Positions 16,800 to 61,332 of a stretch of DNA of 64,000 nucleotides are shown here, in pieces; position 1 is the stretch's first letter, and every line of letters begins with the position of its first letter. The translations under genes were made by a program, and so were the position numbers. Source of the stretch: Squalus acanthias (lineage: Eukaryota); contig JASTWF010000340.1 in the NCBI GenBank assembly GCA_030390025.1, positions 248,001-312,000 of the forward strand. The letters run 5' to 3'. A model generated the notes under the pieces. That model did no database searches. It was not told the origin of the DNA and worked only from the letters and a program-made list of their open reading frames with translations.

Positions 16800-16846
16800 A
16801 TTACTTCCCCCTGTTTCGCTACATAGGTTCCCCTTCCCCTGCCATA

Positions 16847-17230
16847 TTAGTTTAAATCCTCCCGAACTGCTTTAGCAAATATTACCCCGAGGACATCGGT
16901 TCGAGTCCTGCCCAAGTGCAGACCGTCCCTTTTGTACAGGTAGCACTTCCCCCAGAACTGGTTCCAATGCCTCAGGAATTTGAATCCCTCCCTCCTGCAC
17001 CACTGCTCAAGCCACGTATTCAATCTCACTATCCTGTTCTCTCTATTCTGATTAGCACGTGGCCCTGGTAGCATTCCAGAGATTACTACCTTAGAGGTCC
17101 TACTTTTTAATTTAGCTCCTAGCTCCCTAAATTCTGCTTGTAGGACCTCTTCCCGCGTTTTACCTATATCGTTGGTACCTACATGCACCACGACAGCTGG
17201 CTGTTCACCCTCCCTCTTCAGAATGTTCTA
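16847..17230 (-). CDS. C-terminal part of CR1 ORF1p (SGNH/GDSL esterase-like domain), 5'-truncated
   Basis: VHVGTND and DGLHL motifs directly upstream of ORF2. Confidence 0.85.
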
Positions 17231-20200: not shown

Positions 20201-23200
20201 ACAGTATGGTACCGGGAATGACGGACTTCAGTTATGAGGAGAGACTAGGGAAGGTGGCATTATTCTCCTTAGAGCAGTGAAGGTGAAGTGGAGATGTGCC
20301 ATTATGGTACCGGGAATGAGGGACTTCAGTTTTGAGGAGAGATGAGAGAAGCTGGGGTTGTTCTGGTGAAAACTGCATGGAATAAAGAAGAGGAATTAAA
20401 TACCGATAAGCAAGAATATGAAAAAAATGCAGGCTGCGGTTAACAGTGACAGAATATGCTGACAACGGAAACTAGTGGTTTTAGTTCAAAAAATCTTCAC
20501 CTCGGACAATGAAGCATTTAACCCCTGACATTAAGAACAGGACATCAGAACCTAGACACAGGCTGAACACATTGAATGGAAATGCATTTTGTGAATCTCT
20601 CTGATATGTTTTAAGTCGTATAATAAGTTCATTCTTTGAATAACATCACAGTAGATTCATATAATTGTAGAACATAAGAGCAGACACGGAGGACACTCGG
20701 TCCAACCTGCCTGTGCGGCTCTTTGAAAGACCAATACAATTAGGCCCTTTCATAGACTGTTTCCACATATGCCTGCACGTGTTTCCTTTTCAAGCATTTA
20801 CACAATTCACTTTTGAAAGTTACAATTAAAGGTTCAGTAACAGATTGATTCTCAGACATACATTTATTAATAAAATTGAATTCCAGTGTATAAAATTACA
20901 TCAGGGATAATATTCCACCTAGATACTCCGAAACTATAAATTAGGGGCCGTGTACACAAACACAATGTGAGAAAAGGAGCATACAAACCGCCTCTTAGCC
21001 CTGTATTGTGCGACAAATGTAACTGTGCCTTGAAATCAAAGTAGTTTCTATCAGAGTCCCAAAAAATAAAATGAGTAAACGGCATCGGAAATATAAGATT
21101 TAAATCCCCTTTGCAGGAAAATGAATTTCATGTGTTTCATATTTCTTTTATCTGAAAAGCAAGTCAGCTTGGAGCACGGTTGGAAATGTAGTAAACTTGA
21201 AATTGTAGTAAGCAGCGAGGAGTTTAGCAGCAGATATCAGGAGGACAGAGATAGGCTGCTGAAATGGGCAGACAGGTGGCAGATTACATTTAATGCAGAA
21301 AAATGTGAAGTGATGCATTTTGGGTAGGCAAATGGGAGGAGGCAATATAAAGGATATTATAAAATGTTAAAGGCATTCAGGGTGCATATAAGTAAGATAA
21401 ATTGGTCAATACATTTTAAAAACTTTAAGATTTTTGGCTTTAAAACTTGAGGTATAATGTACAAAAGAAAGGAGGTGGTGGTAATCCTTTGTATATCACT
21501 GGTTAGGTCACAGCTGGAGCAATGTTTCCAATTCTCAGCACATCACTTTAGAAAGGATGTCACGACATTGTAAAGGGTGCCAAGGAAATTTACCAGAATG
21601 GTGCCAGGGATGAGGGAATTCAGTTATGCAGAGTAACTGGAGAAGCTGGGATTGGTCTCCTTAGGGCAGAGTGGTATAAGGGAAGATTTAGCAGAATGGC
21701 ACGAGGCCTGAGCAACTTCAGTTAAGTAGTGAGATTAGAGAAACTGGGATGATTTTTCCCCTTAGAGCAGAGAAGGTTAAGGTCAGATGTATCAGTAATA
21801 TACCGGGAATGAGAGACTACAGTTATGAGGATGGACGATAGATGGTGGGATTTTTCTCCTTAGAGCAGTGAAGGTGAAGTGGAGATTTACCAGTACGGTA
21901 GCGGGAATGAGGGACTTCAGTTATGAGGAGAGACTAGGGAAGGTGGCATTATTCGCCTTAGAGCAGCGAAGGTGAAGTAGAGATTCAACAGTACGGTAGC
22001 GGGAATGAGGGACTTCAGTTTTGAGGAGAGATGAGAGAAGCTGGGATTTTTCATGTGTAATCTGCATGGAACAAGAAGAGGATTTAAATACCGATAAGCA
22101 AAGAAGAAGAAAAAAATTGAGGCTGCGGTTAACAGTGACAGAATATGCTGACAACAGAAACGAGTGGTTTTAGTTCAGAAAAGCTTCACCTCGGAAAATG
22201 AAGCATTTAACCCCTGACATTCAGAACAGGACATCAGAATCAAGACACAGGCTAAACACATTGAATGTTAATGCATTTTGCGAATCACTCTGATATCTTT
22301 TAAGCCGTATAATCAGTTTATTCTTTGAATAACACCACAGTAGATTCATAAAATTGTAGAACCTTAGAGCAGAGAAGGAGGCCACTCGGTCCAACCTGCC
22401 TGTGCGGCTCTTTGAAAGACCAATACAATTAGGCCCTTTCATAGACAGTTTCCTCATAGGCCTGCACGTGTTTCCTTTTGAAGCATTTACCCAATTGCCT
22501 TTTGAATGTTACATTTAGAGGTTCAGTAACAGATTGATTCTCAGACATTCATTTATAAACAAAATTGAATTCCAGTGTATTAAATTACATCAGGGATAAT
22601 ATTCCACCTAGATCCTCCGAAACCATAAATTAGGGGCCGTGTACACAAGCACAATGTGAGAAAAGGAGCATGCTAAACGCATCGTCGCCCTGTATTGTGC
22701 GACAAATGCAACTGTCCCTTGAAATCAAAGTAGTTTTTTTCAGACTCCAAAAAAGTTAAAATGAGTAAACGGCATCGGAAATATAAGATTTAAATCCCCT
22801 TTGCAGGAAAATGAAATCCACGTGCTTTACATTTCATTTGTCTAAAATGCAAGGCTACTTACAGCACGGTTGGAAATGTAGTATACTTGAAATTGGTGCA
22901 ATCAGAAAGGAGGATAGCAGCAAACTTCAGGAGGGCAGAGACAGGCTGGTGAAATGGGCAGACACATGGCAGATTACATTTAATGCAGAGAAATGTGAAG
23001 TGATGTTTATTGGGAAGACGGATGAGAAGAAACAATAAAAAAGGAAATTATAAATCGTTACAGGACATTCAGGGTGCACATCAACAAGTTAAGTTGGTCA
23101 ATAAGATAAGCCATCTTTAAGATATTTTACTTTTAAATTAGAGGTATACAGTACAAAAGGAAGGAGGTTTGCTAAACCTTTGTATATCACTGGTTTGGCC

Positions 23201-25495: not shown

Positions 25496-27104
25496 AATAA
25501 ATTAGGTCAATTGAGATGATCGTTTGTAAAGAATTCCAATAATCCATGGCTAGAATCAAGATGTACCTTGGGCCTAATGACACAAACCAGCTTTAAATGA
25601 TGATCAGATACACAAACGGTCCATTTTGTGACTGAGTGAAACCATCAGTGAAAGATAAAGTCGAGCAGCTGGGTGGACTCTGTTTGCAAATACTGAGCAT
25701 CTCTACAGATCTCCACATGCGACCAAAAACGCGGAACAGGATGGCAATGCATGCGGCGGAGCTCCATTATGGAATGGCTGGAGGCATTAACGGTCGGAAT
25801 TGAGATTGAACATGATGGCGATTAAGAGATAAATTTTGAACACAAATGGTAGCTGCAGTACTGTGTTTGTTGAAGGACATGAGTCTCCGCCAACTGTGCA
25901 GATCAATATCTCAGTGAGATGTTTCAGCTCCTGCACACTGAATGAGGAAATGGACTTAATATAAATTCCTAGATCTGTATGCTGCCTGAATTATTCACCA
26001 GAAAATTTTAGTTTTACAGACAGTACACACACCCTCACAAATATCACAAAGTGCCCTAAATTGAGATGCAATGTGGTAAAGAAAATGAAAAATTAGCAAA
26101 CAAAGGGAAAATGGTCAGTACTGCAGAGAACAGGAACAGCAGTTAAGTCTCATAACGGCAGGCAGCGGTTTCAAATCGAAGGAGCTTTAGTTCAAAGAAA
26201 GAGCAGCTAAGCTGCTCACAGAATGAACAGTTTCTCAGAACCAAGGGCAGAGATAAAAATATATATACTGGAATATCCACTGACTGTTAATATTTTTTTT
26301 CTCCTCTTTCTCTCTCCAAATCACCGGAAACATAGAATCATATAAGCGTACGGCACAGTAGCAGATCATTCGGCCCATCGTGTCTGTGCCGGCAGGAAGG
26401 GATTTTCTTTTGCCCACTGGACACATTCCTGTTCTGTTCAGCAAATGACCAGGCTTAACCGAACCGACAGAAGAACATTTAGTTCAAGTGAACATCTTTG
26501 TGAAACCTCAAACCTAATCAGCTGGTATTGTGCATTATCAGACACAAATGTAACCGTTTTATTTCAATAAGTCTAATCCTTCCCCTTTCTTTATAAAGGA
26601 GCCGATTCCCCCTGGAACACGGCTGTAAGGGCGGCGCTTTTCTGTTTTGCCCTTGGGTAGAGCGGACACTTTCCATGTCTGAGCTCAGACGCTGTGTGTC
26701 CGTGAAAAGTCTGATAACAGATGGTGTAAACATGGATCCTGAATGTGCCCTCAAATGACATCCACTGATCAACAGTTTACAATGGAGCCACACGGTAACG
26801 ATCAGCAGCGGGCACTCTCTCTACTTCGCTCTCCGCCCTAAATCACCCAACTCTCCCGAAAACTAAAACCAGTTTCACTCTCTCAACGCTACCAACTGAG
26901 AATTCTGCACAAACAAGCATCCGCTCCGACAGCTTTCCAATCTAAAGTGCTTCACACCAAACTAGGAGTTACTTTCATTCACTGAACTACTGGAGATCGG
27001 ACACTGCCGGGCTCAGTCCCGCTCTACCGCTTATATTTGCCCACTCTATTGCTTCAAAGAACTGAAATGCAGTAATTTAGGTATAAAATTGTTTCACAAC
27101 TCAC

Positions 27105-27135
27105 CAAACATCAGTAACAAGGCGGCTGTGTCCAT
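27105..27135 (-). CDS. Candidate signal-peptide first exon (MDTAALLLMF + phase-1 donor) of an unidentified gene
   Basis: Strong Kozak AACATGG, hydrophobic codons, donor TTG|GTGAGT; lies in non-repetitive sequence. Downstream domain exons not identified. Confidence 0.4.
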
Positions 27136-27257
27136 GTTCTAGAGTGAGCTACTTTCCGACATGAGAGCTGTAAGGAATGGCGACTCAGTCTCTTGCTCCG
27201 CCTCCAGGATTGTCATACCTGGAAGCGTTCAGAGAATGAGAGCAGAAACAGAGGCTG

Positions 27258-27300
27258 AGAGGAAGTGAGGTGGCCCCACAATTAAAGCAACAGCACCACA
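27258..27300 (-). promoter_or_regulatory. ETS (AGAGGAAGTG) and RUNX (ACCACA) motifs upstream of the candidate leader exon
   Basis: Motif matches at 27258-27267 and 27295-27300; motif-level evidence only. Confidence 0.3.
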
Positions 27301-27369
27301 ATTAAATAAGGATTGGAACTTTGCAAGATTCAACATGGGACACATTTAAATTTCATACAATCTTCTCAG

Positions 27370-29050
27370 TATGTAGAGCCTAGAATGGACAATGAACCCA
27401 GAACAGCACCGTCAATCATTTGTCTTTAGTTAGAACCTCATCTCACAACATGGTCAGGAACTCCAGTGCTGTCAAGAGACCGTTTTCCCCCCTTCAGCCT
27501 CTTAGTGTCAACATCAAACACTCAAAAGTCATGCGCTCTACAGCAAAATACAAGGGCAAAGTGACTCAACAGAATTCTCAGAAGAGCGCCTCCTACTGTA
27601 TAGATCATAGTTTCTGAATTTCGTTAATCGTCCATCATTTTGGCTGCTTTAGTGAGATGCGGTTTGCTCCAGAATCGTTGCTGCTTTTACGCTGCAGTCG
27701 ATTAAAAAGAAAACTGAATCATCCAGAAACCGACAGCAGTGTTTTTCACGGAGGTCGGGGAAAATTAATGTACACGGGTATGTTTAATGTGAATCCCATA
27801 TTGAGCTGGTTTACTGTTGGTAATAATTGATTGATTTCTACCGTCTTCCTCAAATACTATCTCATGCATCATGGAAATGAAGGTGAAAACAAAACTAATG
27901 ATGTTACAGTGCAACGTTCCAGCTCTCCTCAGTAGAAGAGAACTGGAATGGCCTACGATGAAATGCACCGACACATTTAGAGATGTGTTCGAAACTGAAA
28001 ATGCTCATTTGAAACATTTGAATTAAAATGCAGAAGAGAATCAGTGCAGCTCTCTTCCTTAACCGCTTTCCCCTCCACAGCCATGCTGAACCATGTCAGA
28101 CTGTGAATGGGAGCTCACATTTCCCCAAAGAAGAGGGTCAGATTAGACGATTATAAGTAAATAAATGCATTAATAACCTTCACTCAAAATCAAGGGCGAT
28201 TTCATCAAGAACCACACATTCCCCCGTTGGTTCAGTAAGTTCAACGAGTGTGAAACTTCATTAATAATCACAAAAACATGGGGCTTTGGTAAAACGAGGC
28301 TGAGTTTGACATTTCTTCTTCCATTTTTTTCAGTATAAGATCTACCAGGACCGCGTCTGACGGGCAAAAGGCACTGGTAATATTCCCTGAAGCAGTGAAT
28401 CCCTGATACTCAGTGTACCAGAATACCTGTCCAACAACAACAGCAACAACAAGCATTGATAGAGCGCTGTAAAATGTCCCAAGGCGCTTCACAGGAGCGA
28501 TTATCCAACAAAATTGGACAGAGTTTTAGGGAAAAAGTTCCGTACCTTAGGTCCTGGGCAACTGAAGACACGGCCGTCAGAGGTGGAGCGCAGAAAATGA
28601 GGATGTTCAAGAGCAAGGAGGCCATTCGGCCCATCTTGTCTGTGAATTGGAATGTTGCAATGTATAACATCATAATCTTTGAATATTAGACTGAATGAAG
28701 GTTCTAGAGTGGACTATGGACCCAGATCAACGCCGTCAATCATTTGTGTTTAGTTATAACATTAGCTACCATCATGGTCAGGTACTCCAGTGCTGGGAAG
28801 TGTCCGTTTCCCACTCGAAACGAATGCGCAGGTCAGTAAAATGCAACAAAGTGACTCAACCCAAACCTCAGAAGAGCGCCACCTACTGTATCGATCCAGC
28901 ATTTTCTGTTTTTATTTTGTATCGATCATTGTTCCTCTATGTCGGTAAACAACCATCCTGTGGTCGATTTGAGTGAGATGCCGTTAGCTCCGGATACGTT
29001 GTCGATTTTACGTTGCAGTTGATTAAAAACAAAACCGGAACATCCTGAAA
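27370..29050. repeat. Old direct duplication of a ~350-bp non-TE segment (about 27370-27730 and 28700-29050), each copy with AP-1 and CTCF-like motifs
   Basis: Shared blocks CCGTCAATCATTTGT, CATGGTCAGG.ACTCCAGTGCTG, CAAAGTGACTCAAC and CTCAGAAGAGCGCC.CCTACTGTAT. Confidence 0.8.
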
Positions 29051-29721
29051 CTTAGAGCAATTTTGTTACATGAGTGTCTGGTGTAATGAATATCCAAGAG
29101 GCAAGAATTCGATGATTGCAGTGGTCTCGGAGGGTTGTAGGGCTGGATGATGTCATGGAGGAATTTGTATAGCAGGATGAGAATTGTGGGGCTGGAGAAG
29201 GTTACAGAGATAGGGAGGGGCGTGGCCATGGAGGGATTTGAACATAAGCATGAGAATTGTGGGGCTGGAGAAGGCTCCAGAGATAGGGAGGGACGGGGCC
29301 ATGGATTTTTATATCACGATGAGAATTGAAATAGTTTTTTTTAAAGGCATAGGGTTAAAAATAATTATGGACAGATTAATAGATAGAATGCTTTTAACAA
29401 TAGTCGAGAAATATTTAAATTAAAGTTGTCGTGTTTTCTATGTATTCTTTGGTAGTGAATAGAATGTATATTTGTGTTTCTGTCCTCTGTCTATTTTCAG
29501 GTTCCTTAGCATGTTAATAAGTGTTGTTATTTTTATTAAGTGTAGTAACGACATGAAGGGCTTTTTATGCAATAAATGCATAACAAATTTTATTGGTAAC
29601 TGTTGTTAACATCATTCATTTTGTGCCATTTAGCTCTTTCAGTTTTGCTCCTCTGAACGTTTAACTTTTACGATGAAGTCCAGTCATATCATTAAAACTC
29701 ATCGGACGGGATATCCCGCTT

Positions 29722-30400
29722 ATAGAATCTTGGAAATTTACGGCACAGAAGGAGGCCATTCGGACCATCGTGTTTGTGCCGGCCGAGAAAGCGCCAGCCA
29801 GCCTAATCCCACTTTCCAACTCTCAGTTCGTAGCCCTCTAGGTTACAGCACTTCAGATGCATATCCAAGTACTTTTTAAACGTGATGAGGGTTTTTGCCT
29901 CTACCACCCTTTCAGGCAGTGAGTTTCAGACCCCTACCACCCTCTGGGTGAACCAAGTCCTCCTCAAATCTCCTCTAATCTTCTACCAATTACTTTCAAT
30001 GTATGCCCCCTGATTATTGATACCTCTGCTAAGGGAAATAGGCTGCTTCCCATCCACTCTATCAAGGTGCCTCGTTATTTTGCACACCTCAATTAAGTCT
30101 CCCCCCACGGCCATATCTGCTGCAAATCAATCAACCCAGCCTATCGAAAATAACAAGTTAAAATGCTGGAAATGCTCAGCAGGTTAGGCCGCAACTAGGT
30201 GAGAGAAACAGAGTTAACGTTTCAGGTCGATGACCCTATCAAATCTTTCCTAATAGCTAAAATTCTCCAGTCCTGATAACATCCCCGTAAATCGGTTCCA
30301 TACCCTTTCTCGTGCAAGCACATCTTTCCTGTAATGTGTTGACCAGTACTGTAAGCAGTGCTCTAGCTGTTGTCTAACTGGTATTTTATACAGTTGAAGC
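29722..30400 (-). mobile_element. CR1 3' fragment interrupted by a short Penelope-type insert
   Basis: Antisense CR1 3' UTR and LQLYKIPVRQQLEHCLQYWS remnant. Confidence 0.8.
30146..30234 (-). mobile_element. ~90-bp Penelope-like terminal fragment with partial hammerhead core
   Basis: TSD CCTATC at 30140-30145 and 30235-30240; homologous to 39410-39510 and 40434-40525. Confidence 0.7.
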
Positions 30401-30596
30401 ATGTGGTGACCAGAAGTGTACGCAGTACTCTTGCAGTAATTCCGGCGAAGTAACGCCAGCGAAACGGGAGCAGGCTGTCTGGACCGCAATGTCCGGTGGC
30501 TTCTTGGTCCCCCTTAATCAGCTGGTCGCCCCCATCGCCCCCAGTTTGGGAATCTCTATTCTATTGTATGGAAAGGAACAATGGCACGAAACCGAG

Positions 30597-30695
30597 TGAC
30601 GTAATCTGTTTGTTCAGAGGACTGTAACTAACATGAGGAAAATTGCTTCACTGGAGACAGGTATAACTGAGGAATCCATTGAATGTGACACAGAG
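30597..30695 (+). promoter_or_regulatory. Proximal promoter of GPCR gene A (bZIP-like TGACGTAAT, FOX-like TGTTTGT, TATA-like GTATAA)
   Basis: 30/35 identity to the reconstructed block upstream of gene B, plus shared TGGAGAC, GTATAA and CCATTG(G)AATG in the same order. Confidence 0.7.
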
Positions 30696-31203
30696 ATAAA
30701 GTCTACAGCTTTTAGGATTCACATCGCTTTTCATAGAAAATGCGCCGATCAGCCATTGGTCCGGTGTATGCCATTTACTATCCCGTCCTCGCTGCTATTG
30801 GCGCTCCACATAAGTTGCTAAGACATTGAGTGTGCAAACGGCTTCTCAAAGCAGTTACTTAATTTGTTGTTTTTTATTCAGAGTTCAGTCTCTTCCTTTA
30901 AGGATCGGGCGGACCTTTTCACATCTTCTGCTGTGCTTGAAAGTGAGCGATTTCAACTGAGATCCCACCTTGTGATCAGAAATGATTGAAAGCACTGCGA
31001 TCGCTTTTGTTGATTCTCGCAGATGTACACCGAACAGTTTCCTTAGACTCGGCATTGTGCACCACTTTAGAGGATTTGTTCACCCATTTATTGAAAAGTT
31101 TTAACATTTGCCTTAAAACAGCCAACAAAACGTCTAATGAATGGTTAGCTACACTAATGCCACCGACATTTCAGTTTAGCTGATGTCGGGCGATGCATTA
31201 CAG

Positions 31204-31400
31204 TGTCAGCCGTGGCTCAGTGAGCAGCACTCTCGCTTCTGAGTCAGAAGGTTGTGGGTTCAGCGACCCACTCCAGAGGCTTGAGCACAACTATATAGCC
31301 TGACGCTCCAGTGCAGTAGCGAGGGAGCGCAACACTGTCGGCCGGTGCCGTCTTTCGGATGAGGCGTTAAACCGAGGTCCCGTCTGATCTATCAAGTGAA
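31204..31400 (+). mobile_element. tRNA-derived SINE, 5' half (Deu-domain type)
   Basis: A box TGGCTCAGTG, B-box-like GGGTTCAG, central GTGCCGTCTTTCGGATGAG block. Confidence 0.75.
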
Positions 31401-31409
31401 GGTGAAGGA

Positions 31410-31915
31410 GGAAGGATTTCAAGGTGTTGGAGAATATACAGAGGAGTTTTACCAGGAAGTTGCACGGGATGAGGACATTTAATTATGTGGAGAGTGTTGG
31501 GAAACTCGGATTGTTCTCCTTCGAACAGAAAAGATTAAGAGGTAACCGAATAGATGCATTCAAAATGCTGAGGGATTTTGATACAGCAGGTGGTGATAAA
31601 TGTAGGGCACTGGCAAAGCGGTCGGTAATCAGAGTTCATAGATTTACAGAAATTGCCAAAATAATTAGAGGGGAGCTAAGGATTTTTTTACACAGTGAAT
31701 GGCTAAAATCTGGAACGCACGACCCGAAAGCGTGGTGGAAGCAGATTCCATGGGAAATCTCAAACTGCTTTTGTATATATTCTGGAAGACTAATTTGCAG
31801 TGTTATGGAGAGGAAGCTGGGGCGTGTGACTGAATTGGACAGTTCTTTCGAAGAGCCGGCACAGGCACGACGGGCCGAATCATTTCCTTCTGTGCTGTAA
31901 CATTCTGTGATTCTG
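31410..31915 (+). mobile_element. CR1 3' fragment
   Basis: RSFTRKLHGMRTFNYVESVGKLGLFSFEQKRLRG; TTCTGTGA tail. Confidence 0.8.
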
Positions 31916-32187
31916 TGGTATTATAGTGTATTGTAATGCATTAATTACATTACGGTGTATTTTATTGTGCTAGACTCTATTATAATTATATACTTGTATT
32001 ATAATTCTTCATCTGGTATTATATTTCTAATAGCTCTCTAAAAGTATTATGGTCTAACACATGTTATTACACTGTGTTAGAGTGCACTAATTGCATTACA
32101 GTGCATTATTTGATATTATAATATATTATAATTGAATGAAATGTATTACGGTGCACTGTGCAGCATTATACTGTATTATATGGAAAG

Positions 32188-32650
32188 GGTCAGCAGTGGC
32201 TCAGTTGGTAGTACTCTCACCTCTGAGTCAGAAATTAGTGTGTTCAATGTCCCACCACAGAGACTGAGCACAGAAATCTAGGCTGACATTCCAGTACAGT
32301 ACGGAGGGAGTGCAGTACTGAGGGAGCGCTGCACTGTCAGAGGTGCCGTCTTTCGCATGAGATTTTAATCCGAAGCCCCGTCTGCTCTCTCAGGTGGGCG
32401 TAAAAGATCCCATGTCACTATTCCAAAGAGGAGTTGGGGAGGTACCGCTGGTGTCCTGGGCCAAAAATGTATACGTCAATCAACAAAACAAGATTATCTG
32501 CTCTGATCCACATTGCTGTTTGAGGGAGCTTGCTGTGCAGAAATTGGCTGTCGAGTTTCCTACATTAAAACAGCGCTTCATTGGCAGTAAAGCACTTTGG
32601 GACGTCTGGAGGACGTGAAAGGCGCTATATGAATGCACGTTTTTTCTTTC
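32188..32650 (+). mobile_element. Near full-length tRNA-derived SINE with Deu-like core and L2-type tail
   Basis: TGGCTCAGTTGG A box, GTAAAAGATCCCATG core, tail AAGGCGCTATATGAATGCA. Confidence 0.8.
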
Positions 32651-32981
32651 AATATGGAGCATCAATTGTATTACGGTGCTTTACATGGTATTGCAATGTA
32701 TTATCTGTTAACTCACTGTATTATACTGATTTAGCTGCGTTATAGCGCACTATATGGTGTTATGCTGTATTATACTGAATCAATTTTATTACAGTGCACC
32801 AATAGAAAATAAGAACATAAGAATTCGGAGGAGGAGAAGGCCATATGGGCCCTCGAGCCTGCTCCGTCATTCAATAAGGTGACGGCTAGTCTTCGACCTC
32901 AACTCCAGTTTCCGTCCGACCCCTTACCCCGTGATTCGCTTAGTAGCCCAAGAAACTATCGACCTCTGCCTTGAATATACT

Positions 32982-33204
32982 TGAATGAACTGGGACACAT
33001 CTCATTGTCTTGGCTGTGCTCTTAGTGTGTCTTTGATGTAGGGAAAGATTTAATCTATGCATTTTCTCTGTGTTTATATTCTGTGAATTCTGATAGATTC
33101 TCTCACAGTAACTTTACCTGACGAAGGGGCGACAGCTCCGAAAGCTTGTAATTTTAAATAAATCTGTTGGACTATAACCTGGTGTTGTGCGATTTCTCAT
33201 TTTG
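32982..33204 (+). mobile_element. Penelope-like terminal repeat fragment inserted into an antisense CR1 tail (about 32805-33400)
   Basis: 9-bp TSD GAATATACT at 32973-32981 and 33205-33213; contains a hammerhead motif followed by AATAAA. Confidence 0.7.
33114..33151 (+). ncRNA. Minimal type I hammerhead ribozyme motif
   Basis: UUAC-CUGACGA-A-GGGGC-GACA-GCUCC-GAAA-GC-UU-GUAA: both core boxes, stem I UUAC/GUAA, 5-bp stem II, palindromic AAGCUU in place of stem III. Confidence 0.7.
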
Positions 33205-33917
33205 GAATATACTAAACGAATGAACATCCACAGCCCTCTGCGGTGGAGGATTCCAAATATTCACTAACCTCTGAGCGAAGAGATTCCTTCTCTTCTCATT
33301 CTTAAAGGGCTGATCCCTTATCCTGAGTCAATTTCCCCTAGTTCTAGACACCCCAGCGCGGGGAAACAGCCTCACAGCATCTCCCATCTCAATCCCCCTC
33401 TGATACGGTGCTATACTCTATTATACTGAGTTCGATTTATTACATTGCACTATGTGGTGTGGTGATGCTGCGTCACCCATTTACCAAGACCACACAATGA
33501 AACAAATGGTTTAATTTCGGCTCCTAAGTGAGATTGACTGATTTTGAACCACTGCAGTCCGTATAGTGAAGATGCTCTCACAATGCTATTGGGTAGGGAT
33601 TTCCAGGATTTGAACCCAGCGATAATATTATGTGCAACTCAGGATGGAATTTGACTTGGAGATGAACTCCCACACCTGCTGCCCTAGGTCTTCCTGCTGG
33701 TGGAAGTTGCAGCTTTGAGAGGAGCTGCCGAAGAGGTCTTGGCGGGTTGCTACCGTGCATCCGGTTGATAGTACACACTGCATCCACCGTACTCCGCTGG
33801 TGGAGGGAGTGGATGCTCAGGTTTAATGTGGAAGAGCTGGATCAAATGTCAAATTTACAATTTTCATAGAACGTGCGGTGAAAATCGAGCCTGTGTTGTG
33901 AGTCTCAGCCCTCATTT

Positions 33918-35625
33918 ACATAGATACATAGATACATAGAAGATAGGAGCAGGAGTAGGCCATCCGGCCCTTCGAGCCTGCTCCGCCATTTAATGAGATC
34001 ATGGCTGATCCTCCAATTCAGTATCCCGTCCCCGCCTTCTCTCCGTAACCCTTAACCCCTTTTGCCTGTAGAAATATATCTAATTCCCTCTTAAATATAT
34101 TTAATGAGCTGGCGTACACTGCCCTCTGTGGCAATGAGTTCCACAGGTTCACCACCCTCTGAGTGAAGAAATTCCCCTTCATTTCTGTCCTAAATGGTTT
34201 AGCCCTTATCCTTAAATTATGTCCTCTAGTTCTGTTCTCACCCGCCAAGGAAAACATTCCTTCTGCATCTAGTCTGTCTAGACCTGTCAGAATTTTATAC
34301 ACTTCTATGAGGTCCCCTCTCAATCTTCTAAACTCCAGTGTGTACATCCCTAAACTACATAGTCTCTCCTCATAGGTCAATCCCGCCATTCCTGGTATCA
34401 GCCTGGTGAATCGCCGCTGCACCCCCTCCATGGCAAGAACATCTTTCCTCAGATGAGGCGACCAAAACTGTACACAGTACTCGAGGTGTGGTCTCACCAG
34501 TGCCCTGTACAGCTGCAGCAAGGTATCCCTGTTCCTGTATTCCAACCCTTTTGCTATGAAGGCCAGCATACCGTTTGCCTTCTTGACCGCCTGATGCACC
34601 TGCATGCTCGCCTTCAGTGACTGGTGTACAAGAACACCCAGGTCTCTCTGTACTTCCCCCTCTCCCAATTTATTGCCATTTAAATAATAATTTGCCCTCC
34701 CGTTCCTGCACCCAAGGTGGATAACTTCGCACTTGTCCACATTATAGTGCATGTGCCATTTATCCGCCCAATCACCCAGTCTGTCCAAATCGCTCTGGAG
34801 CTTCCTGGTCTCCTCCTCTGAGCCCACCCCCCCTCCTAGTTTAGTGTCGTCTGCAAATTTGGAAATGCTGCATCCGACTCCCTGATCCAGGTCATTAATG
34901 TAAATTGTGAACAGCTGGGGACCCAGGACAGATCCCTGTGGTACCCCACTTGTTACTGCCTGCCATTCAGAAAATGAGCCGTTTATTCCAACTCTCTGTT
35001 TTCTATCTGACAGCCAGTTCTCTATCCACGTCAATACTTTCCCCTTTATCCCATGAGCTTCAATTTTCCATGCTAATCTTTTATGTGGGCCCTTATCGAA
35101 GGCCTTTTGGAAGTCCAGGTACACCACATCTACTGGCTCTCCCCCATCTATTTTACCAGTTACTCCCTCAAAAAATTCCAATAGATTAGTCAAGCACGAT
35201 TTACCCTTTGTAAATCCATGTTGACTCTGTCCTATCCTGTCCCCATTTGCTAAGTGCTCCGCTATTTCATCCTTAATGATGGACTCCAGCATTTTGCCCA
35301 CAACTGATGTAAGGCTTACAGGTCTGTAATTACCTGCTTTTTCCCTACCCCCCTTTTTGAATAGTGGGGTAACGTTAGCTACCCTCCAATCCATGGGCAC
35401 TGTTCCCGAGTCTAATGAATTCTGAAAAATCATACTTAGTGCATCCGCTATCTCTAGGGCCACCTCCTTCAGTACCCTAGGATGCATGTTATCAGGCCCT
35501 GGGGATTTGTCCGCCTTCAATCCCTTTAGCTTCCTTAACACCATATCCTTAGAGATATTGAGTTGCGTCAGTTCCTCCTTTGCCAATGTCCCTATTTTTC
35601 CCGATATCCCAGGGAGGTTTTTTGT
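33918..35625 (-). mobile_element. Young 5'-truncated CR1 with open RT frame (34018-35586), in the intron of gene A
   Basis: ACATAGAT tail repeats; near-identical to 46060-47893. Confidence 0.96.
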
Positions 35626-36871
35626 CCTTTCCCGCTCTTGTTAACAATGAATTTGGTGGCGGTTGTGATCCTGTCGCAGGGAAGGTGCGGACTCTCCAGA
35701 TGCATCACTCACTACCTGGTGGGCATGGCAGCGACGGATCTGCTGGTCATCCTCACCGCGGTGATACTGAACCGGATCGGTGGGATTTATTTACTGGACT
35801 GTTGGCTCTCCATCACTCCCGCCTGTAGTCTCAGTACGGTTCTGGTTTACATAACCAGAGACAGTTCGGTCTGGTTAACGGTCGCTTTCACTTTCGATCG
35901 ATTCGTAGCCATTTGTTTCCAGGAGCTGAAAACGAGATATTGCAACGAAAAAACGGCCTCTGAGGTTATAGCGGCTGTTTGTGCGCTGGGCTGTTTGAAA
36001 AACATTCCCTTTTACTTTACATACCAGCCGTTGTATATAGTCAACAGAGTGCCCTGGTTCTGTGACATCAAATTAAGCTACTACACTTCCCCTGCATGGA
36101 AAGACTACGACTGGCTCGACCGTATATTAACACCGTGTCTCCCTTTCTTTCTGATTCTGCTGCTCAATGTTCTGACCGTCAGGCACATTGTAGCGGCCAG
36201 TCGAGTCCGCAGGGGACTCCGGGGAAACAGGGACGGTGAGAATCACAGGGACCCAGAGATGGAGAACCGGAGTAAATCTATCATTTTACTGTTCGTGATA
36301 TCCCTCAGTTTCCTGCTGTTGTGGATAACGTACGTCGTTCACTTCCTGTACGTCAGAATTATAGACGATTCTTATTTCACTGGTTTGAATTTCAATGCCC
36401 AACGCTTTATTCTCCAAGAAAGTACAAACATGCTCCAGCTCCTCAGCTTCTGCACCAACACCTATATTTATGCAGTGACACAGACTAAATTCAGAGAAGA
36501 GTTGAAGAATGCGATGAAATATCCCATGACTTTGATTGTGAATTGCTTTAAGCATTGCAAGTGAAAGCTTCCAGCGTTAATTATTGGGTAACGTTTCGCC
36601 CTGTGTTATTCCTATATTTGATTTTTAAACTCGCTTTCTTCCACTTTCCCCTGTCCTAATTAGAATTGCAAGCACTCCCTCTGAGACTCTTCCCCATCAA
36701 TGTTACCCCACACTTAAAATAAACCACTTGCATTTATATAGCGCCGTTCATGTCCATGTGTCAGCCGTTCGATTCCGACACCAAATAGAGGTTTGCGACG
36801 TTTTGCCTTTTACTGTATTTGACACACACAGTATCTTTATTCCGTAGACATACAGATAAATAAACGATGTT

Positions 36872-37634
36872 GGCCCAGAAATTCGCCACTCCGGCTTGCC
36901 GCGGCTGTAAGGATCGCGCGCGCTCCTACCTACCGCTCCTGCCGTTGTGTTTTGGGTCCACGGGAACTTCGGGTCCTGGGCCTCTCCCAACTGCTGGTGC
37001 GCAGTGCTTGCGTGTTCCAGGGGCGCAGTTAGTGCGATGCGTCCCCTGGGATCACGTGGGCCATGCAGAGTCAATGGCAGCAGACCATCTTTCATTCATA
37101 GATTTGACAGGAGACCTGTCAAATCTGTGAATTGAAATCGGCCCCAAAAGAACAGCTAAACTTAAAATATTTTTTTTTACAAACCATCACATTTATAAAA
37201 CAGCTATAGTTAAATAAATTAACCACATTAAACAAAAATTTTAATTTTTGAAAAAATTAAAATACATTTTAAAAGTGAAAAAAATAAACTTACCTTTCTT
37301 TAAAGTATCTAAAAAAGAAAAACCCGTTGAAAAAAATTTAAAATTATACTTACTTAACCACTTACCTTGTTCAAAACGGGTCTTGCGCCTCCTTTTCATT
37401 AGTGTAGTTTCATCAATACTTACCCTCGCGAAGAAAGCTGAAAAAAAATCTAAGTTTGCTGCATGAGCGCAGCCTCTAGCGCTCACGCGGTTCACCTAGG
37501 AACCGCCACCTTCACCATACCGGAAGTTCCGGTTTCCCGCGCATGCGCAGTGCATGCAGAAAACCGGCACTTCGGGAAGCAATACGGGTGAGTACAGAGC
37601 GCGTATTCACCAGGTAAGACCGAATTTGTGGCCC
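36872..37634 (+). mobile_element. MITE copy 2 (divergent subfamily)
   Basis: GGCCCAGAAATTCG...CGAATTTGTGGCCC; TSD GTT on both sides. Confidence 0.85.
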
Positions 37635-40699: not shown

Positions 40700-41062
40700 A
40701 CATCTATGAAGTTGTTTTCTGTTGGGTTAAGAAGTTCAATGTTGTGTAAAGATGTTCCCTGTTGCAGAAAGATTTTCCCGTTTACGTTACGGTGTTCCCT
40801 TTTATATAACGTTGTGTATTCGTATACCTGATGTATAACGGTATTCCCTTTTGCGTAAAGGTGTTCCCTGCTTTGTAAAGATATTCCATGTTGTGTTAAG
40901 ATATTCCCTGTTCTGTTAATGAATTTTCTGTTGTGTAAAGATTTTCTGTCTTGTTTAAAGATGTTCCCTGCTATGCAGAAATGTTCACTGTTGTGCAAAG
41001 AAGTTCCCTGTTTTGTAAAGGTCTTCCCTGTTGTAGAAAGGTGTTCCCTGCGTTGTAACGTT
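40700..41062. repeat. 20-bp minisatellite (TGTTGTGTAAAGATGTTCCC), block 1
   Basis: Direct 20-nt periodicity. Confidence 0.9.
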
Positions 41063-41439
41063 GATGCTTGTCAGTTTTATGTGTTAGCGGACTAATTTCA
41101 GCCTCTGGTGTTTATTTAAAGCGATTGAATTGCCCTCAAATAGCACAGAGTCCCGGACATAGCAACGCACGGGTTGGGAGGCTCACCCTGGCTACACAAT
41201 GTCACAAAGACCGTCGGTATTACACCATCTACAATGGGACAGACACAGAATGAAACACAGAAAACCAGCAAGGGAATTTAAGGACACACATCGCGAGGGA
41301 AAGAGAAAGACACTGGAAACCGGAGAGAGTTAGATTGATGGAAAGACTTAGACTGCGAGAGAGACAGAGGGAGAGATAGACAGACAGGGAAACGGAGAGT
41401 GAGTGGAAGACCAATACTAGCATCAAAGTGTTTTGATTA

Positions 41440-43245
41440 GGTTAATGAGGTTAATCTGGTTTACGTAGTGCACATGTATTTCCAAAAGCTGTTCGAAAAA
41501 ATGCCAAATAATAGGCTCGCCAGCAAAGTTGAAGCCCAGGGAATAAAAGGGACAGTAGCAGCATGGATACGAGATTGGCTAAGTGATAGGAAACAGAGAG
41601 TAGTAGTGAAAGGTTGTTTTTCCGACTGGAGGAAGGTACACAGTGGAGCGCCCCAGGGGTCAGTTCTAGGACCACTGCCTGTCCTGATATATATTAATGA
41701 CTTGGACGTGGGTGTACAGGGCACAATTTCAAAATCTGCAGATGACACAAAACCTGAAATTATATTGAACGTTAACGGGGATAGTAATAGACTTCAGTAA
41801 GTCATCAACAGGCTGGTGAAATGGCCGGACACGTGGCAGAGGAAATTTAACACGGAAATGTGTGAAGTGATACATTTTGGTACAAAGGATGAGGAAAGGA
41901 AATATAAACGAAATGTTACAATTCTGAATGTGGTGCATGAACAGAAACGTGGGTGTACATGTGTACAAATCGGTGAAGGTGGCAGGCCAGGTTGAGAAAG
42001 CAGTAAAAATAAGGCTTACGGGATCCTGGTCTTCATAAATAGAGGCTTTGTATTTAAAAGTGTGGAAATTATGATGAAATTGTATAAAACACTGGCCCAA
42101 AAATTAGTGCCGCTACGCGAGAGTACGCACTGTGTACTCTCGCGTATTCTGTCTCCAATTGCCGGTTTTCTGCATGCACTGCGCATGCGCTGAAAACCGG
42201 CACTTGGTGATTTCAAAAGGGGGCGGTTCCTAGGTGAACCGCGTGCGCGCTACAGGCTGCGCGCACGCAGTGCACTTAGTGCTTTGAACGCGCAGGTAAG
42301 CATGGAAGATTTTACACATAAAGAAAGGAGGCGAAAGACCCTCTTTTAACAAGGTAAGTAGTTAATTAAGTATTACTTTGAATTTTTTTCAACAGATATA
42401 TCTTTTTTAGAGACTTTAAAGAAAGGTAAGTTCATTTTTATAAAGTTTTAAAAGATTTAAAATTTTTTCAAAAATTTAATTCTTTGTTTAAAGTGGTTAA
42501 TTTATTTAACTATACTTATTTTATTAATGTGATGGTTTTTTTTAAATTTAATTGAGGTTTAGCTGTTCTTTTGGGGGGGTATAGTATTCACAGCTTTCAC
42601 AGCCGTGCTGTGAAAGCTATGAATGAAAGATGGTGTGCTGCCATTGGCTCTAACTGAGTCACGTGATCCCACAGCTGCGCCTGTGGGATACGAAAGCCCT
42701 GCACAGCGTTTCGTCCTCAACTGGAGTACTGTGTCCAATTCTCGGCACCATCCGTTACGAAGTATGTGAAGTCCTTAGAGAAGGTGCAGAAAAGATTTAC
42801 GCTAATGATTCGAGGAATGAGTGACTTGATAGACTGGAGAAGCGAACGTTGTTCTCCTTCGAGCAGAGAAGATTGAGAGGAGATTTGATAGAGGTGTTCA
42901 AAATTATGAGGTGTCAGGACAGAGTAGATAGAGATAAACTGTTGCCATTGGCATAAGGGTCGAGAACCACAGGACACAGATTTAAGATGATTGTCAAAGA
43001 ACCAAAGGCGACGTAATAAAAACATTTTTATGCAGCGAGTGTTTAAGATCTGCAATGCACTTCCTTAAAGGGTGCTGGAGGCAAATTTAATCACGGCTTT
43101 CAAAAGGGAGTTGGGGAAGTATCTGAAGGAAATAAATTGCAGGGCTGTGGGAAAAGGGTAGGGGAGTGGAAGAAGCTAAGATTCGGCACGGGCTCGTCGG
43201 GCCGCATGGTCTTCTTCCGTGCTGTAACCAGTCTATGATTATATG
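41440..43245 (+). mobile_element. Decayed CR1 RT/3' fragment interrupted by MITE copy 3
   Basis: [11 protein letters not shown] and SADDTK motifs; CR1 resumes at ~42710. Confidence 0.85.
42094..42707 (-). mobile_element. MITE copy 3, inverted, one TIR deleted
   Basis: Begins ACT|GGCCCAAAAATT; near reverse complement of copy 1. Confidence 0.9.
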
Positions 43246-43254
43246 ACACTAAGC

Positions 43255-55960: not shown

Positions 55961-56454
55961 TTGTTGCCGGCCAAGAGTGAATAAGAGGAAGTTAGTCAGG
56001 AGGTTGCACAGTTCTAATTTAACTGGCGCTGTTAACCCATGGAGACTATATATCTGCATAAAATAGCGGAGAGAGTAATGTCAATGCGGCACGTTTCGTG
56101 TCCATCCCCCTAATAACACCCACAGTAATTTCTAGGCTCCAATCCTGAACATGGCATTTAAATATCTCTGGGAAACTGCAGGGACAGAGTGAAACGGTTC
56201 TGCTTGTGTCCCTGGATTGAGAGTACACGGCGGAGAAATAATTAAAATTCATAAATAAATTGGGAGCAATGATCATGGTTACTATAAACACATGAACGCT
56301 ATAAATGAAGCCGCTCATTATTGTTGGATCAGTCCTGTATGGGGAGATCTTTCAATCTTATTCCCCAGAGAGAGCTGATTAAGATGTGGTCATTGAGATG
56401 TTTGTGTTGTATGCACCACATTATTTAACTCGAAGTCAAAGATCCTGATGTAAT

Positions 56455-57034
56455 GGCCCAGAAATTAAACATGGATGGTTCCCGCGGGGGTAAGGATTCC
56501 CCGCGATATCGCACTCCGCGCCTACCTTTTTGATCCGGGCCCACACAAACTTTAGTTTCAAAGGCTCTCTCTGTTGGAACCATGCAGTGCTTGCGTTACT
56601 CGGAGGCGCAATTCGTTCGTGCGAGCTCGGGGATCACGTGATTCAAGTTGGAGCCAATGGCAGCACACCATCTTTCATTCATAGTTTTGACAGGAAGACC
56701 TGTCAAAGGTATGAATACTACACACCCCCAGAAGAACAGCTAAACCTCAATTAAATTTTTAAAAAGCCATCACAATAATAATATAAGTATATTTCTTTGT
56801 GTGTAAAATCTTCACCACTTACCTGCGCGTTCAAAGCTGGAAAAATGACTAAGTGCACTGCGTGCGCACAGCCTGTAGTGGGCACGCGGTTCACTTAGGC
56901 ACCGCCCCCTTTTCCATTCACGAAGTGCCGGTTTCCCGCGCATGCGCAGTGAATGCAGGAAACCGGCAATTCGGGATCGAATACGCGAGAGTACACAGCG
57001 CGTACTCTCGCGTATTAGGTTTAATTTTCGGCCC
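56455..57034 (+). mobile_element. MITE copy 4 (internally deleted), inserted in the gene B promoter
   Basis: GGCCCAGAAATT...AATTTTCGGCCC; TSD AAT at 56452-56454 and 57035-57037. Confidence 0.9.
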
Positions 57035-57037
57035 AAT

Positions 57038-57135
57038 GTGTTTGTTCAAGTGACTGTAACTAATAGTAATGATCAGGGGTATAATCGTGTCAGTGGAGAC
57101 TTGTCCCCTGTATAAATCAGGGCCCATTGGAATGG
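57038..57135 (+). promoter_or_regulatory. Proximal promoter of gene B with TATA box (TATAAA 57111-57116)
   Basis: TATA 91 nt before the ATG; motifs shared with gene A. Confidence 0.7.
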
Positions 57136-57201
57136 ATCAGCTCAGAGTGCCTGCCGGAGCTGTGGGTTCCACTCCAACAGAAGTCGCTGCTTCTCTCAGA
57201 A

Positions 57202-60200
57202 ATGGGACATCCAGTTATCCGTCAGATAGAAAATAATTATTATCCTGTTATTTCAGCCGTTGGGGTTACTGGTAAGCAGTTATCTTTCTGTGAATGGTGA
57301 AAATCGGTGTTAACTCTGCTGCTGTAGTTGGTAATGGCCCAGAAATTGATCTCGCTCTGTTCCCGCGGGAGTAAGCCTTCCCCGCGTTCTCTCACTCCGC
57401 TTGTGCTTTTTCAGATCCAGCTCGCACGAACTTGATGTTCCAGACATCAGCCGGGCAGTGCTTGCGTATCCCACCGGCGTAGTGAATTCGTGCGAGCTGT
57501 GGGATCACGTGACTCAGTTAGAGCCAATGGCAGCACACCATCTTCCATTCATAAGTTTCACATACGTGCTTTGAAATCTATGAATCTTACACCCCCCCAA
57601 AATAACAGCTAAACCTCAATTAAATAAAAAAAAAACCATCACATTAATAAAATAAGTATAGTTAAATAAATTAACCATTTTAAATAAAAAATTAAATTTT
57701 TGAAAAAATTTAAAATCTTTTAAAAAGTTATAAAAATAAACTTACCTGTCTTTAAAGTCTCTAAAAAAGATATAACTGTTAAAAAAAATTCAAAAAAATA
57801 CTTAATTCACTACTTACCTTGTTAAAAGTGGGTCTTACTCCTCCTTTTACCATTTCTAAAATCTTCAGTACTTACCTGCGCGTCCAAAGCATGAAGTGCA
57901 CAGCGTGCGCGCAGCCTGTAGCGCGCACGCGATGCACCGAGGAACCGCCCCCTTTTCAAAAGACCAATTGCCGGTTTTCAGCGCATGCGCAGGGCATGCA
58001 GAAAACCGGCAATTGCAGAGGGAATACGCGAGAGTACGCAGTGCGTACTTTCGCGCACCGGGGTGAATTTTTGTGCCATTGTTTTTCTCCCTGCATGTTT
58101 TCCACAGCCGCCTGTTCTGTTCCAGCAGTTGAATGATGGGATGTCCTCAGACTCTGCTCTTGTGGTCTTGTAGGAGTTTATTATATCTGGAATGATCTTT
58201 GTGGATCCAACCCTGGCATTGTAACTGGATCATTCTCTGTACAGAATATATTGTGAAGTATTATATCACTGTGTGTGTATATGACGCTGATCAAAGCTCT
58301 GGCGACTGAAGTGTGTTTGCTGCTGACACCTTCACATCTCCTTCTTTGATTCACTGACTGTCACTGGACTTCATTGTAAAATGTAATGTTTTCAGGTGAT
58401 GTTGTATCAGTCTGCATTCTATCTGTTGGAATCAGGAGCCGTTCTATTGATCTGGGGATTATCAGTGGCAGCGGGGAGGTTGCTGTTTTTTTGTTAATTG
58501 AGCAATCCCGCCATCTAAGGCTGCACTTTATAATTACAGGAGAAGGGACTTCAATCATTGTGAGGTCTGTCTGGAAGATTCTGTTTATTCCATGCATTGC
58601 AGATCAATGTCGGTGAACAGGTGGAGACTTGAGTGATCTGTGGGAAGAATAAACTATTCACAGTGGCTTCAGCATTGAGCAAAATTACTCTCGGAATTAA
58701 ATCATTGAACACGCAGAGAGTGAACAGAACTCAGGCGCAGTTGATTAGGATTAAATGAAAAAGGGCATTGAGAAAGTGATTGGAGACAGTTGAGAGAGAT
58801 AAAGAGTAGCGATATGTACAGAGGCTGGGATGGAAAACTAGAGGAAGTGAGTGAAGGGAGGGGTGAGAGAGAGAGATTACAAAAGATTACATAGGTTATA
58901 CAACTGAGAAACTGGCCATTCGGCCCAACCAGTTCATGATGGCGTTTATGCTCCACTCGAGCCTCCTCCCATCCTTCCTCATCTAAATCTTTCAGCATAA
59001 CCCGCTATTCCCTTCTCCTACATATGCTTATCTAGCTTCCCCTTAAATGCATCTATACTATCCGCCTTAACATATCCCTGTGGTAGCGAAGTCCTCATTC
59101 TCAACACTCTCTGTTTCTTCTGATTTTCCTATTTGATTTCTTGGTGAATATCTTATATTGATAACCGCTAATTATTTCCTTTCCCTCAACTGGACATACT
59201 CTCTCTGTGCCTATTCTATCAGAAACATTACTATTTTTAGAGAACTCTATCAGATCACCACTCAGCCTTCTATTTTCAAGGCAAATGGGACCCAGCCTGT
59301 TCATCCTTTCCTGATAGATATACCCTCGCCTTTCTGGTATCATCCCTGTAAATCTAAGACAGAGAGCGAGAGAGGCAACGGTGCGCATATTTCATCGGAA
59401 TGATCTGCTGAAACTTCCAGTCCAATTATGATGAGGAACTGAGCTTTGAAGGTGATGTTCGGATGTTTTCAGATTGTGAGCATTTATTGTATCGCTATGA
59501 GTTCCCAATCTCTTCTGCTGAATGTTCAGTTATCTTATTCACTGACTGGACAAGTGTATTTACAGAATAGAATCCGTGATTTATTGATTGTAATGGATTA
59601 TTAGAGTATTATATTTTAAACGCTCTGTGACAGCGGACTTCAGTAAAGAAAGAGGTTGTTTTAATTAATACATTTTAATTGAATTTGCTGAGTAAATTAA
59701 TTGAACACATTTGGTACACAGCCTGCTGCTCTCTGACACACAAAGCCACATAAATTATTGTTTGATAGTGTTCAATGAGTTGTGTTACTGGGATTTTTAT
59801 TTGATTTGCTCTCAGACTCTGCTTCACTCTCTCCCTGTGAATCCCAGTCTCTCCTCCTCCTGCATTGAATCCTCTGTCTCCTCATCCGATGCTTCAGTTT
59901 GTCCGCTTTCCCAAACTCTCAGCTCCTGATTCCCCTCCAGCTCCCACATGTCCTTTTCCTTCTCTCCCTCCCAATCCCACTCACTGGCCCGCCCTCCAGC
60001 TGCCTGTTCCCGTTTACTGCCAGCCCCTGTCAGCTCTCCTAAACCAGACCAACAAACCAGCTTCACCTCCTCCCACTCACCCCAATCCTTCCCAGCGTTC
60101 AGTCTGGAGCCCAAATCCGGACTTAACCCATTGGATTCTGGCTCCCCAAAACACTTCTCCATTCCCCACCGGCACTGCGCCGTCACTCGGCCCTTCCAGT

Positions 60201-61332
60201 GGATTCCGTTGCTCAATTTATTCACTTTCTGTATCGAGTTCCCAATTCATTCTCGATAATTGTGTTGCAAACATTTCTCTGCCCGAAAGCGCTGCCCAGG
60301 ACCAGGAATCAGTTTCCACCGTTCGATGCAGCAACAAAGCTGGAAATTTCAACCCAGATCCTGTCAAACTGCTGCTTTGGCACCAGATCTGATCAGTAAT
60401 TTGTCGGCTTCCCTTCTCTCTCTCTTACAGTGAACTTGGTGGCGATTGTGATACTCTCCCGAGGAAAGTACGGTCTCTCCAAATGTATCACTCGCTACCT
60501 GGTGGGAATGGCAGAGGCCGATCTCATGGTCGTCATCTCTGATCCCATATTGAGGTGGATTGGTCGGATATATTTCCCATATTCATTCCTGAGAATTACT
60601 CCCTTGTTTAGTCTTGTTCTGTTTCTGATTTTTGCAAGCACGATGGTTTCTGTCTGGCTCACAGTCGCTTTCACCTTTGATCGGTTTGTGGACATTTGTT
60701 GTGAGAAGCTGAAAACAAGATATTGCAACGAGAAAACGGCGGCTGTGGTTATCGGAACAGTGACTGTGCTGGGCTGTTTAGAGTCTGTCCCCTGGTACTT
60801 TACACTTGAACCTTACTATGTAAATGATAATGTTCCCTGGTTTTGTAAGCATAAACCCAGCTTCTATACTTCCCCCTCATGGGTCGCATTTGTGTTGATT
60901 CACCGCATTTTAACTCCTTGTCTCCCGTTCTTTCTGATCTTGCTGCTCAATGCTCTGACGGTCAGACGTATTTTAGTGTCCAGTGGAGTCCGCAGGGGAC
61001 TCCGGAGCCGCAGCGATGGAGAGAATCCCAAGGACCTAGAGATGGAGAACAGAAAGAAATCCATCATTTTACTCTTCAGTATAACCGGCAGTTTTATATT
61101 GTTATGGGTGACCCAGATTGTACTTGTCATCTATAAGCGAATTACAAACAATTATTTTCTTTCCATGAATGAACCACTTTATATCACAGGACACACAACA
61201 GCAATGCTTCAGGTTCTAAGTTCCTGCACCAACACGTGTATTTACGCTGTGACCCAGTCTAAATTCAGAGAGGAGCTGAAGAACGCGGTGAAATACCCAC
61301 TCAAGCTAATTGTAAAATTATTTAAATCATAG
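57202..61332 (+). CDS. GPR139/142-like class A GPCR gene B; join(57202-57271, 60431-61332), 323 aa
   Basis: Exon 1 MGHPVIRQIENNYYPVISAVGVT, donor G|GTAAGC, polypyrimidine acceptor TTACAG|TG, phase 1 in frame; GxxxN, ADL, DRF and NTCIY motifs with hydrophobic helices. Confidence 0.9.
57336..58077 (+). mobile_element. MITE copy 5 in the intron of gene B
   Basis: GGCCCAGAAATT...AATTTTTGTGCC; flanks AAT/ATT. Confidence 0.9.
58885..59352 (-). mobile_element. CR1 3' fragment in the intron of gene B
   Basis: RFTGMIPERRGYIYQERMNRLG remnant plus antisense 3' UTR. Confidence 0.75.

Follow-up and report, generated by a model that had tools for sequence, protein, structure and literature searches.

Two genes for G-protein coupled receptors (GPCRs), here called gene A and gene B, lie in the stretch of Squalus acanthias DNA analysed in this work (64,000 nucleotides of contig JASTWF010000340.1; hereafter the window), and a 35-bp block upstream of the coding sequence is common to both. 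We observed that this block has accumulated far fewer changes than the non-coding DNA around it since the divergence of two old subfamilies of the receptors; its position and its linkage to the genes were likewise observed directly. We consider it probable (approximately 0.7) that the block is the ancestral proximal promoter core of a large family of orphan GPCRs in elasmobranchs, related to GPR139 and encoded by two exons each.

Conservation of the block upstream of gene A and gene B

The intact copy of the block lies upstream of gene A at 30597..30631 (+ strand), where an earlier note on this DNA had placed it. The gene B copy is divided into two parts, with the first nine bases at 56446-56454 and the remainder, seen in the sequence and in contigs, at 57035..57063 (+), and a MITE stands between them. 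Because of this split, a direct search for the block returned one copy only. Once the MITE and one AAT were set aside, the copies of A and B were identical at 30 of 35 positions, in agreement with that note.

We compared approximately 350 bp upstream of each gene. The best ungapped 35-mer scored 30, while 200 first-order Markov shuffles gave a mean of 20.3 and a maximum of 23. At a neutral identity of 0.56 the binomial tail for this match is 1.9e-4; 43 of 82 four-fold sites are identical between the two genes. Their coding sequences have diverged considerably (dS 0.86-1.06, dN 0.29-0.32; 191 of 323 residues identical), and 12% of the 863 coding 35-mers of exon 2 reach a score of 30 (mean 24, maximum 32). 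The best 35-mers far upstream (19) and in the 3' flank (21) did not exceed the shuffle level. The same was true of the starts and ends of the introns (20 and 20), in which the earlier note had seen no similarity. Homology upstream of the two paralogues thus stands above that of their non-coding flanks (30/35, with the flanks at null). Between the block and the ATG the comparison was borderline (21/35, reached in 5 of 200 shuffles; 31 of 200 for local alignment), and the words TGGAGAC, GTATAA and CCATTG(G)AATG, which had been reported to follow the block, were all found in both genes.

The block begins with a bZIP-type site, TGACGTAAT, at 30597..30605 (+). It resembles a D-box, a C/EBP-ATF site or a CRE-like site. 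The word TGTTTGT, which we take to be forkhead-like, follows at 30607..30613 (+), and there are 24 such words in the window. The last part is a 12-mer identical in A and B (30620..30631, +), with only two copies in the window, at 30620 and 57052. A TATA-like box of gene A, with a presumed function, is located at 30662..30667 (+), 31 bp after the block and 78 bp before the ATG. In gene B the corresponding distances are 48 bp and 91 bp, a difference of 17 bp in the spacing between the block and the TATA-like box. The block itself sits approximately 110-140 bp above the ATG. Transcription is expected to start about 30 bp below a TATA box, and the upstream ATGs (two in A, three in B) all lie above the start expected in this way from the TATA-like box.

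The MITE inside the gene B block (56455..57034, 580 bp, no strand assigned) is bounded by inverted ends and by a target duplication of AAT. We take it to be of the PIF/Harbinger type, which the short inverted ends and the 3-bp target duplication would fit. Further copies of the same family were found at 3350-4092, at 36872-37634, from 42094 and, in the intron of gene B, at 57336..58077 (no strand assigned), which gives five in the window; three of the five are in the two GPCR genes or within 310 bp of them. A perfect 3-bp target duplication (AAT, ATT, GTT) was present in three of the four copies for which both ends were found. Among three organisms, the end of the MITE in the block was covered in contigs of organism A only. 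Contigs clipped at the MITE edge restored the uninterrupted site in all three organisms (10, 40 and 4 contigs), and they continued into a consensus ending in CTGATGT with an agreement of 0.76-0.81. The reconstruction with the MITE removed, on which the earlier note relied, is therefore independently confirmed. The insertion displaces the bZIP site of gene B by 580 bp, and this copy of the block is probably weakened or altered.

Contigs of 4 of 23 runs were aligned to 57012-57333 with a likeness cut of 80%. There were 197, 724 and 110 contig pieces on the gene B upstream region from organisms A, H and I, respectively; the block is present in many subfamily B paralogues of these three organisms. 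The fourth run, X21, presumed to be RNA, contributed no pieces, a result that speaks neither for nor against. Only 1-6% of the aligned pieces run into unlike sequence, and the long ones extend through to exon 1; among the loose ends listed, those at 57215 and 57231 carry exon 1 sequence. Since the contigs run on into exon 1, the block is linked to the gene and does not behave as a dispersed repeat.

The loose-end consensus of run X2 agreed with the DNA in front of the MITE of gene B at 26 of 30 positions, compared with 14 of 30 for gene A. Over its first 24 bases, directly upstream of the block, the agreement was 20 of 24 for gene B and 9 of 24 for gene A. Conservation in subfamily B therefore reaches at least 24 bp further upstream. 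In gene B this stretch, displaced by the MITE, occupies 56422..56454 (+) and ends in the bZIP-type TGATGTAAT (56446-56454). The subfamily B consensus of 56422-56445 holds the word TATTTAC, presumably forkhead- or octamer-like, and a CAAAG word, presumably HNF4/DR1-like; gene A has neither. Downstream of the block, contigs and gene models delimit a core promoter and probable 5' UTR conserved in subfamily B (57064..57201, +), with TATAAAT at 57111. Conservation in this subfamily covers approximately 190 bp: it begins above the block, takes in the TATA-like box and the leader and reaches the ATG. Rather than a lone 35-mer, the block is probably the core, common to gene A as well, of this longer subfamily B promoter and 5' UTR. 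The earlier note had asked whether the flanks are equally conserved, and the answer differs with the comparison: between A and B the flanks are at null, in its favour, while within subfamily B they are conserved too, which goes against it. In the 40 of 89 rows listed there were no variants in 57035-57066, variants at 14 positions in 57067-57201 and at 19 in exon 1; the chance of finding none in 57035-57066 is approximately 0.03, a figure weakened by its basis of 40 of 89 rows.

Protein models gave further information on the upstream DNA. Extra residues before exon 1 were carried by 17 of 238 proteins (over-extended gene models), and eight of these 17 translate the upstream DNA of gene B with a score above their own shuffle maximum (six from Heptranchias, one from Heterodontus, one from Narcine). 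In eight gene models of three species the subfamily B leader at 57142-57201 forms an open frame in phase with the ATG; this open leader represents either a 5' UTR that has been conserved or additional N-terminal sequence derived from an upstream exon. None of the four over-extended models on the A side matched the upstream frames of either gene, and none of four candidates matched when longer proteins were searched with the gene B upstream frame. Neither an exon-1 pattern nor a portion of the block found any locus in metagenome scans. On the subfamily A side the block is represented by one DNA locus, gene A. The element had been proposed to be family-wide, and this holds for subfamily B, in many paralogues of three organisms, and for subfamily A at this one locus.

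The receptor family and the state of the two genes

Homologues of the two receptors formed 2323 clusters at 90% identity with gene B as the query and 2339 with gene A. Among the 120 clusters listed per query, all named ones came from sharks, rays and skates, and they mostly carried the name 'probable G-protein coupled receptor 139'. A FastTree phylogeny of 182 sequences (180 of 238 homologues, of length 290-345, and both exons 2) fell at its midpoint into a B-type group of 77 and an A-type group of 105 sequences, with support of 0.948 and 1.0, in a sample composed of the best hits of the two queries, a choice which favours an A/B split. Identity was 56% between the groups and 66% within them. 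Both groups contain sharks and batoids, and therefore the A/B split is older than the split of sharks and rays, which took place some 270-300 million years ago. In the tree, gene A clusters with one gene each from Pristiophorus (85%), Heterodontus (78%) and Heptranchias (80%). The terminal branch of gene B is long (0.24, median 0.10). A profile search of the 50% representatives returned 131 hits at 1e-30, and the ten that were looked up among the 150 profile hits listed include salamander, coelacanth, teleost and nemertean proteins.

We found no literature on the expansion or the promoter of this family, in a search of mainly openly accessible papers. The terms GPR139 and GPR142 are absent from the shark genome papers PMC11979771, PMC8455134 and 10.1101/2025.02.19.638963, and the accessible part of a GPR139 review does not mention sharks (PMC12208981). 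Cartilaginous fishes have been called poor in GPCRs (PMC8455134), whereas we counted more than 2300 clusters at 90% identity. This uncharacterised receptor expansion is a larger story than the block.

Gene A consists of exon 1 (30740..30809, +; 23 codons and one base), an intron (30810..35647, +) and exon 2 (35648..36564, +), which is an open frame of the 7tm_1 type. The last base of exon 1 is C, and the intron starts with ATAAGT and ends with AA, so that its AT...AA ends are non-canonical. These ends are supported by the junction residues of orthologues: an odd residue (S, P or C, not V, A or G) is found in 3 of 53 A-type models, which are the three closest orthologues of gene A (chance 4e-5). 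The intron is possibly an old non-canonical one of the U2-type AT-AC kind, with AT-AA in this case, that has been retained across shark orders; a recent loss of function is the alternative explanation of its ends. U2-type AT-AC introns and G-to-A/G-to-C rescue are described in the accessible part of PMC1557818. A young 5'-truncated CR1 LINE with an RT frame (33925..35625, - strand) ends approximately 22-27 bp before the acceptor.

The splice sites of gene B are canonical, with a GT donor after exon 1 (57202..57271, +); exon 2 (60431..61332, +) is again an open 7tm_1 frame. The TM3 cysteine, which is Cys in 178 of 182 members, is replaced by Phe in gene B. This gene may be decaying. We did not observe excess decay in either gene (A departs from 6 of 110 and B from 5 of 122 conserved columns), and 20 of 104 relatives of A and 26 of 76 relatives of B depart as much; therefore neither is shown to be a pseudogene. 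Both genes may be impaired, gene A by its intron ends and the CR1 insertion, gene B by the MITE and the loss of the TM3 cysteine, and for this reason neither proves that the block is in use.

Beside the two GPCR frames, the window contains many CR1 LINE frames. The CR1 copies at 33925-35625 and 46059-47751 are 98.6% identical, and a further one with a 1002-residue frame lies at 13863-16871. A 98-bp CR1-derived unit forms at least seven arrays across 5933-22052, and their recurrence through the first 22 kb suggests a larger tandem unit. A 20-bp satellite, with as many as 52 copies, and a 92-bp array located in a CR1 5' region occupy 40719-44313 and 50472-51140. A 26-bp satellite was looked for over the 5 kb upstream of each gene (25600-30596 and 51450-56445) and is absent there.

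Promoter reading and alternative explanations

The block was passed on with each gene duplication. In the promoter reading, a bZIP dimer of the PAR/E4BP4 or C/EBP-ATF class would bind beside a forkhead factor, and another factor would sit at the invariant 12-mer. Hundreds of paralogues would thereby be given a common cell-type address, and subfamily-specific flanks would tune the core. The bound factors, the start site and the tissue of expression are in this scheme predictions from sequence. The shortness of each motif and the mostly provisional factor labels count against the promoter reading, and the 17-bp difference in spacing between the block and the TATA-like box counts against it as well. 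The earlier note had argued for a shared promoter code, and we retain the part according to which members of an expanded family of orphan GPCRs share an element upstream, an element that proved to be gene-linked; the part concerning amino acids was not supported.

According to that part, the block would be an ATF4 amino-acid response element which raises amino-acid receptors on starvation, an explanation we regard as decidedly improbable. The consensus of such elements is TGATGxAAx, and TGATGTAAT fits this pattern. The core is present in gene B and in the subfamily B consensus, but gene A has TGACG, not TGATG; there are 16 such cores in the window. Human GPR139 was the sole match among solved structures (PDB), and it binds Trp and Phe in a pocket formed by F109, H187, W241, R244 and N271, according to the accessible text of PMC5430874, which would also agree with ATF4 control. 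The match is, however, distant (E 1e-6, approximately 25% identity by hand count), and key pocket residues are lacking: when positions were mapped via the GPR139 alignment, F109 was kept in 47 of 182 members, H187 in at most 1, W241 in 169, R244 in approximately 19 and N271 in 86. In subfamily B, three of these five vary strongly, as they would in a repertoire that has diversified. We also considered the shark receptors as GPR139 orthologues and rejected this assignment, with identity at approximately 25% and the pocket not kept.

The 9-mer has other possible readers. In mouse liver ChIP-seq for DBP/E4BP4, the accessible part of PMC6687812 lists TGATGTAA as D-box#3 (third-ranked) and TGATGCAA as D-box#8. 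Gene A carries TGACGTAA, which is absent from the 18 D-boxes listed in that part and differs by one base from TTACGTAA; the latter is related to TGATGTAA and is bound by NFIL3 and C/EBP proteins (PMC10941009, accessible part). Since TGATGTAA is D-box#3 and TTACGTAA is bound by both NFIL3 and C/EBP, the 9-mer is not diagnostic of ATF4. The site resembles D-box / C/EBP-ATF composite sites, in which an 8-mer cannot separate PAR/E4BP4 from C/EBP-ATF or CREB/ATF. The proposed link to amino-acid sensing is thus unsupported on three counts: the receptors are only distantly related to GPR139, key pocket residues are missing and a D-box would account for the site just as well.

It is unlikely that the block is transcribed and acts in RNA, whether by serving as an element of the 5' UTR or by providing the branch point and acceptor region of an upstream non-coding intron. 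The block ends in CTAAC/CTAAT, which we take to be branch-point-like, and the Heterodontus model P0076 enters at its 3' end with a score of 46 against a shuffle maximum of 35, a second and weak match among 397 proteins scanned, with a score which unrelated hits reached too. On the other side, no pyrimidine tract follows the block, a TATA-like box lies downstream of it in both A and B, and two to three upstream ATGs would fall in such a leader. No stable fold stood out around the block (z -0.88, 1.09, -0.35), and Rfam gave only weak matches, far below gathering scores. Rather less credible is gene conversion among clustered paralogues, which would homogenise the upstream region without selection on these bases. 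The non-coding upstream region of subfamily B is mostly at least 90% identical while depth collapses in the coding exon 1, conversion has been proposed for some V1R promoters (accessible part of PMC1955453), and conversion or recent duplication could also produce the conservation of the subfamily B flanks. Against this, one consensus extends across three organisms as well as named sharks and a ray, and A and B differ at 5 of 35 positions and share nothing directly upstream (9/24), which argues against a recent A-B tract.

That the block belongs to a dispersed repeat and stands before both genes by chance is very improbable. The earlier note had named this as an outcome that would overturn its reading. 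Summed depth over 57078-57143 reached approximately 100,000 in run X14, compared with 200-600 in exon 1, as a repeat would predict. Exon 1 of gene B has, however, diverged so far that many paralogues fall below the 80% cut, and contig depth gives no copy number and was not used as such. There are only two copies of the block in 64 kb, both before exon 1; few pieces run on into unlike sequence (1-6%, among the loose ends listed), and the long ones reach exon 1.

We favour the promoter reading, in which a 35-bp element apparently kept across the two oldest branches of the family offers a handle for a promoter census, for candidate factors and for a cell-type reporter. By analogy with V1R, odorant-receptor and protocadherin promoters, sharks and rays might possess an unrecognised sensory or immune repertoire, made up of hundreds of GPR139-related GPCRs whose ligand pockets vary, in which the block would be a common choice element, with paralogues competing for one factor complex and one or a few expressed per cell. 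We think this unlikely; if true, such a role in receptor choice would deserve far greater attention than an ordinary conserved proximal promoter.

Comparison with known systems

Short elements before each member of a tandem family are known from the clustered protocadherins (CSE) and from the odorant receptors (homeodomain and O/E sites), for which the binders are known and a role in stochastic choice has been shown. The shark block differs from them in sequence, and for it a binder and a role in choice would be hypothetical. As regards the receptors, the shark family lies on a common rhodopsin-class branch with GPR139/GPR142 and with GPR210A/B, named as extra fish subtypes of these receptors in the accessible part of PMC6504862. 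It differs from GPR139/GPR142 in having hundreds of paralogues per lineage and in not keeping the pocket; its nearest bony-vertebrate relatives are found in salamanders, coelacanth and teleosts.

The closest likeness is to the mouse V1R promoters, which are conserved within subfamilies, have motifs in common across subfamilies and have possibly undergone conversion (Stewart and Lane 2007, PMC1955453, accessible part). A promoter common to paralogues is thus a known kind of feature, and we do not uphold the claim of an undescribed system. Both cases, as far as that part describes V1R, involve a large clustered GPCR family with broad upstream homology within subfamilies and short cross-subfamily motifs near the start site, which in the shark genes is a predicted one. 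In V1R, however, the homology peaks measure 0.5-1 kb and lie several kb above the coding exon, the starts have been mapped and expression of one receptor is described (PMC1955453, same part). Across V1R subfamilies the upstream regions are, according to the same text, not alignable, whereas the shark 35-bp block, in genes A and B, aligns directly between subfamilies, approximately 110-140 bp above the ATG.
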